Below, in pieces: positions 7,961-12,240 of a stretch of 64,000 nucleotides of DNA; within the stretch, counting starts at the first letter, position 1, and every line of letters begins with the position of its first letter. Below the pieces are notes generated by a model. It saw only the letters and a list, made by a program, of their open reading frames with translations. It was not told where the DNA came from and made no database searches. The position numbers and the translations under genes are program-made. The stretch comes from Escherichia coli (GTDB taxonomy: Bacteria; Pseudomonadota; Gammaproteobacteria; Enterobacterales; Enterobacteriaceae), in NCBI RefSeq assembly GCF_003334765.1, contig NZ_QOWT01000013.1. The stretch is one strand, 5' to 3'.

Positions 7961-7996
7961 GGCCGGATGCGGCGTGAACGCCTTTTCCGGTCTACG
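7961..7996. repeat. REP (repetitive extragenic palindromic) element
   Basis: GGCCGGATGCGGCGTGAACGCCTTTTCCGGTCTACG between convergent etk and appA; matches the E. coli REP consensus. Confidence 0.7.
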
Positions 7997-8028: not shown

Positions 8029-8059
8029 AGAGCATTCAGGTAACTGAATGCTCTTTTTT
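8029..8059 (+). terminator. Rho-independent terminator downstream of etk
   Basis: AGAGCATTCAG-GTAA-CTGAATGCTCT perfect hairpin followed by TTTTTT. Confidence 0.65.
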
Positions 8060-8064
8060 ATGCA

Positions 8065-9363
8065 TTACAAACTGCACGCCGGTATGCGTGCTTCATTCAC
8101 GATTTGCGTAAAACCTGCCAACGAACACATGCCCTGCGCATTTCGCTCTTCACATCCTGCCAGGGTCAGTTTCACCTCTCCGGGCGGCGTATTTAATGAC
8201 AGCGGCGTTTTATCACGCATCTGCTGTAAAGTCTGGAAGACCAGCGAAACCTGAATCCACTGGCTGTTATCGCTTAGCCGACGCCAGCGTTCAAACACCA
8301 GTTCACCACCTGGCGGCGTGTTATCCGGCTGACCGGGAAGCGTCCAGTTGAGCTCCAGTGCGCCGCCGAGATTTGCCAGATTAGTATCGTGTCCGGCGAT
8401 AAACAGCACTGAAGTGGGTAATGTCACACCATACGCCTGTTTTTGCGGTGGATGGGGCGTCAACGCTGTCTTGATCAAATCTAATAACGGGGTGGCGCGG
8501 CTGCGGGCAACCTCTGGCGTGCGTTGTAGCAAATAAAATTGCGCGTTATGCAAACTTAGCAAGGTGTTCCACTGGTGTGAATCGGTGATCCTTCCCCACC
8601 CCGGCTCCGGCATTCCCTGTGCTTGTTGCAGGAGAAATATCTCCGTCAGCATTGATGCGAGGCTTACCGCACCGGTTAATGAGACATTGTCGGCGCTCAC
8701 CTTGAGTTCCGATGGTAATGCCTGCGTTAATGAACAGCTTTCGTCCTGTTTCTCACGTTTAAGGCACAAGTTTGATTGCGGAAAATTAAGCACCCGTTCC
8801 AGTTCGCGAAACGCCGTTTGCCGATGCCCGGTAAAGTCAGCAATTGACCCTCCTGCCCTGCTGAGGATCGCGTCAGTCACGTTCGCGTTATCCAGTTGGC
8901 AAACGCCAGTTTTTAGAGGATTAAATAACGGATCGGGACTGGACGTATCTGCCTGGGTATGTACGGTTATTGCACAGTCAGGTGCCAGCCCGGCGGCGAA
9001 GGCTTCGCCTGTTTTACGGGTACGCTCGTCGACATCAGCAATAATCGCGACCTGACCAGACTGCGGGCAGCCCTTTTTCGCCAGCAATCCGTCGGCTACC
9101 AGACGCTGGCGTTGGTAATGTCCGAGATAGGCGATTAGCTCACCACCGCGCGGTGTCAGCCAACCCAGTTTTACCGGCCAGGTTGGCCATGCGTCTGGGG
9201 TGACATCCTGCATCAGTTGCGTGGCCTTGGTTGGAGCACGCACACCATGACGACTGACAATCACCACACTTTCCAGCTTCAGCTCCGGCTCACTCTGAGC
9301 GAATGCAGATTGCGGGGTTAACGGAATCAGAAGAGATAAAAATGGGATTAAGATCGCTTTCAT
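8065..9363 (-). CDS. appA: AppA periplasmic phytase / pH 2.5 acid phosphatase
   Basis: ORF-track frame 8065..9393 trimmed to Met-11 (432 aa); signal peptide, RHGVRAP histidine-acid-phosphatase motif. Confidence 0.9.
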   Translation of the reverse strand: MKAILIPFLSLLIPLTPQSAFAQSEPELKLESVVIVSRHGVRAPTKATQLMQDVTPDAWPTWPVKLGWLTPRGGELIAYLGHYQRQRLVADGLLAKKGCPQSGQVAIIADVDERTRKTGEAFAAGLAPDCAITVHTQADTSSPDPLFNPLKTGVCQLDNANVTDAILSRAGGSIADFTGHRQTAFRELERVLNFPQSNLCLKREKQDESCSLTQALPSELKVSADNVSLTGAVSLASMLTEIFLLQQAQGMPEPGWGRITDSHQWNTLLSLHNAQFYLLQRTPEVARSRATPLLDLIKTALTPHPPQKQAYGVTLPTSVLFIAGHDTNLANLGGALELNWTLPGQPDNTPPGGELVFERWRRLSDNSQWIQVSLVFQTLQQMRDKTPLSLNTPPGEVKLTLAGCEERNAQGMCSLAGFTQIVNEARIPACSL

Positions 9364-9442
9364 CGATATGTTTCCGCTTTTCATATCTGACATTATTGAT
9401 TGCCTGATGCGATGCTAATGCGCCGCATCAGGCCTACGTTCG

Positions 9443-9535
9443 TTAACTTTTCAGACGCGGGTCCAGCCATACCAACACAAGGGTGGAGAGCGAACACATC
9501 AACAAAATGCCGACGAACCAAAGTAAATACCACAT
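9443..9535 (-). CDS. appX: AppX (CbdX/YccB) 30-aa membrane subunit of cytochrome bd-II
   Basis: Not in ORF track (below size cut-off); hand translation of minus strand 9535 to 9443 gives MWYLLWFVGILLMCSLSTLVLVWLDPRLKS then TAA; sits 12 nt downstream of appB stop. Confidence 0.75.
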   Translation of the reverse strand: MWYLLWFVGILLMCSLSTLVLVWLDPRLKS

Positions 9536-9547
9536 TGTTTCTGCTCC

Positions 9548-10684
9548 TTAGTACAACTCGTTTTCGTTACGGCGGAGAGTTTCTGTTGTCATGCGCCCCC
9601 ACATTTTGTAGTAGCTCCAGAGAGTGTAGAGCAACACAATGGGCAAAAATATCAGCACGATTACCAACATAATGCTCAGCGTCAGCTGACTGGAAGTACT
9701 GTCCCACAACGTCAGGCTGGAGATCGGACTCACGCTTGACGGCATGACAAAGGGGAACAGCGTGATGCCTGCCGTGAAAATCACGCCAAATTGCATCAAT
9801 GATGCCATCAAAAATCCCCAACCCGGGCGACCACGATAAATCGCCATCACCGTCAGCAATGGGCAGAAGAATCCCAGCAGCGGGAAGATCCACAAAACGG
9901 GCGACTCGACAAAATTATTCATCCAGGCACCAGGTAGCACTGCCACCAGTTTCATTAACGGATTGGAAGGACCGTTAGCATCCTGGGCGAGCAGTACAAA
10001 GCCATCAATACCGACCCACAGCCAGTAACCCGCCAGCAAAAAGCACAGCATCACCAACAGTGCAGCGCGTTTGGTCGCCAGCTGTGAACGCAGATGAATC
10101 ACACCAACAGTTTTCAGTTGTAACCAGACGCCACCTTGCAAAATCACCATCCCAAGGCTGAGCAATCCGCACAATAAAGGGAATGGCGTCAGCAGTTGCC
10201 AGAAGCTGCCGAGATACTCCACGCGTAATTGCGGTGTGAAGGCAAACGGCACGCCGAGCAACAAGTTGCCGAAGGCGATACCGAAGACTACCGGCGGCAC
10301 CAGACTGCCGATGACCAGACCGGCGTCCCACATTTTACGCCAGCGTGCATCGGCGATTTTTCCGCGATAATCAAAGGCCAGCGGGCGGAAGAACAGTGAG
10401 CACAGCACCAGGATCATCGCCACATAAAAGCCGGAAAACGCCGCTGCATACACTCTGGGCCAGGCGGCAAATAATGCCCCACCAGCGAGGATCAACCAGA
10501 CCTGGTTGCCTTCCCAGTGTGCACCAACGCTGTTTATCACTATCCGGCGTTCATCATCATTACGCGCCACCAGCGGCAGCAGACAGCCGATCCCCATGTC
10601 AAATCCGTCGGAGATCATAAAGACCACCAGGATCACGCCAATCAGCAGCCACCAGATGAAGCGCAATGTTTCATAATCAAACAT
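9548..10684 (-). CDS. appB: AppB (CbdB) cytochrome bd-II oxidase subunit II
   Basis: ORF track 9548..10684, 378 aa, polytopic membrane protein; recognised as AppB. Confidence 0.9.
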
Positions 10685-10695
10685 GATTTTCTCCT

Positions 10696-12240
10696 TTACC
10701 CCTGTTGCTGCGTCGGTTGTTCACTCTGCATCGCGCTCGGCCCCAGACGGGCATATTTCTGCATCAGGTAGACTTCGGCGATTAAGAACAGGGTGTAAAG
10801 CCCTACGATCATGATCAGTGAGAAAGCCAGTTGTCCTGTGGTTAAAGCGGAGTGCGCGGAGTATGTCGGTAAGATGTCCTGTATCGCCCACGGCTGACGA
10901 CCAAACTCGGTCATAAACCACCCGGCTTCAATCGCAATCCACGGCAACGGCAAACTCCAGAGCGCCATTTTCAGCACCCAGCGATGCTGGTCGATTTTGC
11001 CACGCAGCGTCTGGACAAGCGCAATCAGCATCACCAGTAGCAGCAGGGAACCACAGCCCACCATGATGCGGAAACTCCAGAATACCGGCGCAACCTGAGG
11101 TATCGCGCCACGCATCGCCGCCTGGTACTGTGCGGCTGTGACATGATTCATATCCGGCGCATAGCGGGAGAGCAACATGCCGTAGCCCAGGTCACCTTCC
11201 AGTCCCCGGAATGCCTGCAACACATGCGGCTCACGATTGCCTTGCGATATTTCCTGCATTAACAGCCAGGCCATACGTCCGCGTTGCAAGCGTGGGTAGG
11301 TTTCAGCCATCAAATTCTTCAGACCCGGCACGGGTTTATCTAATGAGTGAGTGGCGAGGATCCCTAGCAGCGCGGGAATTTTGAGGGCAAAGGCGTTACG
11401 CTCTTGATCCTGTTCCGGCCAGGCAACCACATGGAACGGTGCAGGTGCAGGTTCCGTTTGCCACTCCCCTTCCATCGCCGCCAGTTTTACCGGTTGTACT
11501 TGCGCGACTTCATACGCAGAACTGTCTCCGAGTTGCAGGGTACCGATAATCGCCAGAGTACCGAAGACGGAACCGATGGCAAACGAGCGTAATGCGACAT
11601 CGCGCTCCCGTCCGCGCAGTAAATACCAGGCGCTGATCGCCATAATAAACATGGCCCCGGTCACGTAGCCCGCCATTACGGTGTGCACAAATTTCACCTG
11701 GCTGACCGGATTAAAGACCAGCTCGCTGAAGCTGGTCATCTCCATACGCAGGGTGTCGATATCAAAATGCGCACCGGTCGGGTATTGCATCCAACCGTTG
11801 GCATTCAATATCCACAACGCAGAGAGATTTGAACCGAACGCCACCAGCCACGTCACCAGCAGGTGCTGGTATTTATTCAGCCGTTGCCAGCCGAAGAAGA
11901 ACAGCCCGACAAAGGTGGATTCGAGGAAGAAGGCCATTAATGCTTCCATCGCCAGCGGTGCGCCAAAAATATCGCCCACATAGTTGGAATAGAATGACCA
12001 GTTAGTACCAAACTGAAACTCCATGGTCAGGCCGGTAGCCACGCCAAGAGCAAAATTGATACCGAAGAGCTTACCCCAGAAGCGCGTCATATCGCGGTAG
12101 ATTGTTTTGCCGGTGACCACGTAAATGGTTTCCATAATAGCCAGCAAAAAAATCAGCCCCAGGGTAAGGGGTACAAATAAAAAGTGATACAGCGCGGTCA
12201 GAGCAAACTGCCAGCGCGATAAATCAATGACATCCCACAT
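10696..12240 (-). CDS. appC: AppC (CbdA) cytochrome bd-II oxidase subunit I
   Basis: ORF-track frame 10696..12246 trimmed to Met-3 (514 aa) with AGGAG upstream; recognised as AppC. Confidence 0.9.

Follow-up and report, generated by a model that had tools for sequence, protein, structure and literature searches.

The window, meaning the whole 64,000-nucleotide stretch of Escherichia coli DNA that was analysed, carries on its minus strand the cytochrome bd-II subunit genes appC and appB, directly followed in the same orientation by a very short gene, appX, and then by appA, whose product is functionally unrelated to the oxidase (Table 1). The gene order in the K-12 MG1655 record is hyaF, appC, appB, cbdX, appA and etk, and the segment 4750-14250 of the window differs from that record at 2 of 9501 positions. 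Between appB and appA the first-pass annotation had placed a 30-codon ATG micro-ORF, which is confirmed to the base by translation and by the ORF list: read on the minus strand, 9535..9443 gives MWYLLWFVGILLMCSLSTLVLVWLDPRLKS (codons ATG TGG TAT ... AGT), followed by TAA. The ORF is present, as a 30-aa frame with an ATG start, in a list compiled with a minimum length of 20 aa, and would be left out by the default cut-off of 60 aa.

Table 1. Genes, signals and competing reading frames around appX in the window.
Feature	Position	Strand	Remarks
appC, cytochrome bd-II subunit I	10696..12240	minus	514 aa; RefSeq mapping
appB, cytochrome bd-II subunit II	9548..10684	minus	378 aa; ORF and RefSeq mapping
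Shine-Dalgarno sequence of appX, UAAGGAG	9544..9550	minus	overlaps the appB stop; GGAG core at 9547-9544, 8 nt 5' of the ATG
appX/cbdX (formerly yccB), CDS	9443..9535	minus	30 codons plus TAA stop; ATG at 9535; RefSeq cbdX maps exactly here
+2-frame GUG ORF	9393..9533	minus	46 codons
Plus-strand ORF	9400..9672	plus	90 aa, TTG start
REP-like palindrome	9402..9433	minus	GCCUGAUGCG...CGCAUCAGGC, i.e. GCCTGATGCG(N12)CGCATCAGGC; 32-nt transcript hairpin in the 79-nt spacer
appA, periplasmic acid phosphatase/phytase	8065..9363	minus	RefSeq

At the junction between appB and appX the minus strand reads ...GAG TTG TAC TAA GGAGCAGAAACA ATG TGG TAT..., with the appB stop codon at 9550-9548. The two spacings given by the first-pass annotation are both exact, namely 12 nt (9547-9536) from the appB stop to the appX ATG and 79 nt (9442-9364) from the appX stop to the annotated RefSeq start of appA. 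A Shine-Dalgarno sequence that overlaps the preceding stop codon is typical of tightly packed operon genes. The UAAGGAG found here is the one given as the appX Shine-Dalgarno sequence in PMC9841429.

The peptide is identical at 30 of 30 positions (E 8e-16) to chain C of PDB entry 7OSE, deposited as ‘cytochrome bd-II ubiquinol oxidase subunit AppX’, and shares 100% identity with residues 1-30 of chain X of 7OY2. The description of the product as a single hydrophobic helix also holds, with a mean Kyte-Doolittle hydropathy of 2.08 over residues 1-24, a value that fits one membrane helix, and with a single transmembrane helix in 7OSE. The NCBIfam equivalog NF011333, ‘cytochrome bd-II oxidase subunit CbdX’, is matched over its full length (model 1-30/30) with 80.8 bits against a cutoff of 57 (E 4.2e-23), and Pfam PF08173, YbgT_YccB, is matched by residues 1-25 on model positions 1-25 of 27 (45.3 bits, E 8.7e-12). 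At 30 aa the peptide lies within the limit of 50 aa set for the YbgT_YccB family and has the one hydrophobic transmembrane helix that the family definition calls for. Similarity to CydX of bd-I (6RKO) is weaker but recognisable, with an E value of 0.009, and the score against the CydX equivalog TIGR02106, 18.9 bits, falls below the cutoff of 31.6; hence the window peptide is assigned to the bd-II paralogue and not to CydX itself. The CydX-family motif YxxWxxGx15[E/D], defined in PMC4325964 and described there for 97% of CydX homologues, is represented by Y3, W6, G9 and D25. That paper serves here as the source of the motif; YccB occurs in it only within the family name. The motif is kept in every orthologue that was found, position 25 being D or E wherever the retrieved ORF reaches that far.

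A 501-nt query around appX finds matches in 5419 of 5426 complete E. coli genomes, covering at least 80% of the query length in 5399, and every record among the matches listed has ‘cbdX: cytochrome bd-II oxidase subunit CbdX’ annotated under the match. The exact window peptide occurs on at least 1000 contigs. On the computed evidence of the reading frame, its signals, the identity to a solved chain, the family membership and the conservation set out below, the minus-strand segment 9535..9443 is almost certainly appX (synonyms cbdX and yccB), which stands third in the appCBX(A) operon and encodes the single-helix small subunit of cytochrome bd-II, and the match to AppX/CbdX proposed in the first-pass annotation is thereby upheld. 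Nothing contradicting this identity was found. The gene is well known, ordinary and fully annotated in current databases; being named by RefSeq and by curated HMMs, with its product present in two cryo-EM structures, it has no discovery value as a find. The value is rather methodological, in that a reading of the raw sequence recovers a functional 30-codon gene hidden by a 60-aa ORF cut-off, and AppX and CydX together make a textbook case for attention to micro-ORFs beside the genes of membrane complexes.

The distribution of appX in other enterobacteria was followed in two ways. An exhaustive search of representative proteins with AppX returned 12 clusters at E <= 0.001, identified as CbdX from E. 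coli/Shigella, E. fergusonii and Citrobacter. When so short a query (30 residues) is set against 1.8 billion proteins, the threshold is reached only by frameshifted E. coli variants and by AppX orthologues that are close, so that this search understates the spread of the family. One genome per GTDB species was also scanned with a degenerate DNA pattern covering the first 14 codons, which gave 13 loci. These comprise Escherichia (E. albertii, E. whittamii and three further (cryptic) lineages, two labelled E. coli), Citrobacter (C. youngae, C. braakii, C. portucalensis and Citrobacter sp.), Edwardsiella (Edwardsiella ictaluri, E. piscicida and E. anguillarum) and Salmonella enterica subsp. arizonae. 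The ORF is complete in 12 of the 13, and with E. fergusonii added there are 13 orthologous loci that were analysed in full; the E. anguillarum ORF, which ends with the fetched DNA after codon 20, lies outside this set.

All 12 complete pattern-found ORFs have 29-30 codons and end in ...LVWL[D/E]xRxx, the pattern itself fixing the first 14 codons, so that conservation there is by construction, and the scan being confined to appB operons that contain such an ORF. In each of the 13 loci analysed in full, 12 or 13 nt lie between the stop codon of an AppB orthologue, 69-97% identical, and the ATG, which is preceded at the same offset by a GGAG/GAGG motif. Over codons 15-29 the differences from the window at codon positions 1, 2 and 3 are in the ratio 31:9:86, with 65 synonymous-only codon changes against 42 amino-acid changes, these sums being taken over related species and hence not representing independent events. 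Such an excess at the third position is the pattern that would be expected of a translated sequence. In E. fergusonii (loci L009 and L010, 3501-3632) the order appC-appB-appX and the 12-nt spacer are kept. AppX is there 43 aa long, with a 13-residue hydrophilic C-terminal extension (...ESAKKDEADGNHKIA).

Variation within E. coli was assessed in six strains that rank among the most divergent matches, 95.6-98.0% identical over 251 nt. Compared with the window they show 7-32 differences in 451 nt, and all six encode the identical protein, WP_000270305.1. Only three variable sites fall inside appX, all of them synonymous (S15 TCG>TCA, R27 CGT>CGA and L28 CTG>TTG), with eight in the 79-nt spacer that follows, and the distribution points to purifying selection on appX. 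A natural appX knockout is seen in E. coli EL361 (NZ_CP193497.1; locus L008, 142-1505), where an IS3-family element inserted after nucleotide 52 of the gene truncates it at codon 18 and parts appCB from appA; cbdX is unannotated in that record. Since the insertion lies within the gene, appX is dispensable at least in the EL361 background.

A 30-codon ORF is in itself unremarkable, given that the window contains 295 ATG ORFs of 25-40 codons, 8 of them with a Shine-Dalgarno-like tetramer upstream, and the case for appX consequently rests on homology and conservation. Short frames of this kind being so common, the segment might be regarded as a chance ORF in a non-coding appB-appA spacer, giving rise to no product, but the peptide is identical to a chain in two solved structures and scores above a curated family cutoff. 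Moreover, within E. coli it varies only synonymously, and across four genera the ORF, the Shine-Dalgarno sequence and the 12-13 nt spacing are retained together with an excess of third-position substitutions. Support for a product also comes from mass spectrometry and initiation-site (TIS) Ribo-seq, as reported in PMC8585947 and PMC11188072. The chance-ORF reading is refuted by the structural and conservation data, and its probability is vanishingly small. The first-pass annotation had made the gene depend on conservation in other enterobacteria and on ribosome occupancy. Orthologues are indeed present in Escherichia, Citrobacter, Edwardsiella and Salmonella arizonae, and a published initiation-site profiling signal for AppX is mentioned in the legend to Fig. 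3B of PMC11188072; the main text of the initiation-complex profiling preprint of Weaver et al. (10.1101/511675) names none of appX, yccB and cydX.

No ORF of 60 aa or more overlaps the spacer except the 90-codon plus-strand one, antisense to appX and to the 3' end of appB, which could for that reason be taken for the real gene of the region. It begins with TTG, however, matches no NCBIfam family and is unannotated by RefSeq, and nearly all of it runs opposite to a REP palindrome and two coding sequences that are conserved. The matching antisense frame contains at least one internal stop in 13 of 13 orthologous loci, none of which shows a conserved open frame, and ribosome footprints on the antisense strand were likewise not seen. 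That this ORF is the gene is extremely unlikely, and it is rejected as an antisense shadow of appB and appX; the first-pass annotation was right to call it spurious, and the longer frame offered in place of appX proves to be an artefact.

A further frame overlaps appX itself, owing to the fact that the appX start reads AUGUG. Initiation at the GUG at 9533, either as well as or instead of at the AUG, would yield a 46-codon product in the +2 frame, VVFTLVRRHFVD..., running through the REP element to just before appA. The ORF exists, initiation in two frames can occur at AUGUG starts in E. coli (PMC9841429), and one database protein consists of the AppX N-terminus fused to the +2 frame, although this probably reflects a frameshift in one strain. 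For appX, however, the same paper (PMC9841429) gives an aligned Shine-Dalgarno spacing of 15 and ‘no’ for predicted ambiguity, and the +2 frame is interrupted at about codon 24 in E. fergusonii, three of four Citrobacter species, Edwardsiella and S. arizonae. Being unconserved in sequence, with no family match and no predicted start ambiguity, the +2-frame ORF is rejected, and use of the GUG is regarded as very unlikely. Initiation at the AUG of appX is hence the reading retained here.

The protein is reported to have been detected first by epitope tagging, under the name YccB, and overproduction of AppX is said to rescue a cydX deletion in part. Grauel et al. expressed bd-II from appCBX, purified it and assigned a band of about 4 kDa to AppX by mass spectrometry (PMC8585947). 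AppX could be built into their 3.0-Å cryo-EM map as a single helix that is buried in the membrane, contacts transmembrane helices 1, 5 and 6 of AppC and can be superimposed on the CydX helix of bd-I. The amphipol preparation contained a bd-II dimer whose main contact is made by AppX through Leu4/5/11/12/16/19; whether such a dimer also occurs in the membrane is left undecided by the authors (PMC8585947). A review assigns AppX the same role as that paper does (PMC8951039), and in a delta-appX background no phenotypes of point mutations in cydX were unmasked (PMC6005532). Literature on the identical sequence shows AppX to be made and bound to AppC, and by analogy with CydX it would be needed for the assembly, stability or activity of bd-II.

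For the locus as a whole these data suggest the following course of events. The appX gene would be transcribed together with appC and appB, and translated from its own AUG by way of the UAAGGAG that overlaps the appB stop. The product, a 30-residue peptide of 3.6 kDa with one transmembrane helix, packs on helices 1, 5 and 6 of AppC, next to the bundle of four helices in which hemes b595 and d are bound. As a structural subunit it would stabilise the bd-II quinol oxidase, as its paralogue CydX does for bd-I, and in one cryo-EM preparation it also provides the main contact between two bd-II heterotrimers.

The gene and its product can be set beside several known systems. There is no difference from AppX/CbdX (YccB) of E. 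coli bd-II, listed in UniProt as ‘Putative cytochrome bd-II ubiquinol oxidase subunit AppX’, either in residues, in position after appB or in RefSeq annotation. With CydX (YbgT; TIGR02106; 6RKO chain X) the peptide shares Pfam PF08173, the YxxWxxGx15[E/D] motif, the gene position after that of subunit II and a superimposable position on subunit I (PMC8585947). CydX is nonetheless a paralogue, with 37 aa against the 30 aa of AppX, and the residues Leu4/5/16/19 of AppX are replaced in CydX, a difference linked to the dimerisation of bd-II (PMC8585947). Furthermore, bd-I has a fourth subunit, CydH/CydY, whereas bd-II is without one (PMC8585947, PMC8951039). CydS of the Geobacillus thermodenitrificans bd oxidase and CydY/CydZ of other cydAB operons are likewise peptides of one helix that bind subunit I and whose genes follow cydB (PMC8951039, PMC4325964), but their sequence similarity to AppX was undetectable in the searches made, and the helix of CydS is tilted relative to that of CydX/AppX (PMC8951039).

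The association of appX with appA is of a different kind from that with the oxidase genes. Apart from the window itself, where appA comes next, an AppA-like ORF stands after appX in five loci only, all of them from Escherichia species other than E. fergusonii, whereas appX is followed by unrelated DNA, and not by appA, in Citrobacter, Edwardsiella, S. arizonae and E. fergusonii. In the last of these, appX is succeeded by a minus-strand ORF without a name, of 126 aa in L009 and 90 aa in L010, beyond which lies a gene for a TorS-like sensor kinase. The micro-ORF is thus present after appB with or without appA, from which it follows that appX belongs to the oxidase genes and not to appA. For its part, appA looks like a lineage-specific addition to the operon in the group of E. 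coli, E. albertii, E. whittamii and the cryptic Escherichia.

Within the spacer between appX and appA lies the REP-like palindrome listed in Table 1. Folding of minus-strand positions 9364-9445 gives -27.9 kcal/mol, with a z-score of -4.95 against shuffled sequences; no run of U follows the hairpin, and a terminator and promoter scan of the appX-appA spacer called neither. REP-like sequences are also found 3' of appX in E. albertii and other Escherichia loci. The hairpin might act as a 3' stabiliser of appCBX, or as a modulator of read-through into appA. A joint reading would combine this with the structural work, making the ‘leucine zipper’ between two AppX helices the basis of a physiological bd-II dimer and the hairpin a 3' stabiliser or partial barrier that sets the ratio of appCBX to appA; it is put forward only tentatively, and is rather unlikely to be correct as a whole. 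Against the leucine contact as a universal feature stand the substitutions L4Q and L16I in AppX of E. fergusonii, at sites called conserved dimer-contact leucines in the 7OSE paper, and L5F in the Citrobacter orthologues.

With regard to appA itself, the mechanically called ORF starts at an ATG at 9393, just past the REP hairpin, and has 442 aa, its start lying 30 nt upstream of the annotated one. The annotated start at 9363, which gives 432 aa and a signal peptide beginning MKAILIPF..., is the accepted one. Beyond the other end of appA, in the region that separates it from the convergent etk, a REP-like half-site, GCCGGATGCG, is found at 7962 (7962-7971). The same region contains, on the plus strand at 8029-8054, a strong terminator-like hairpin with an 11-bp stem and a T run, which is presumably the etk terminator.
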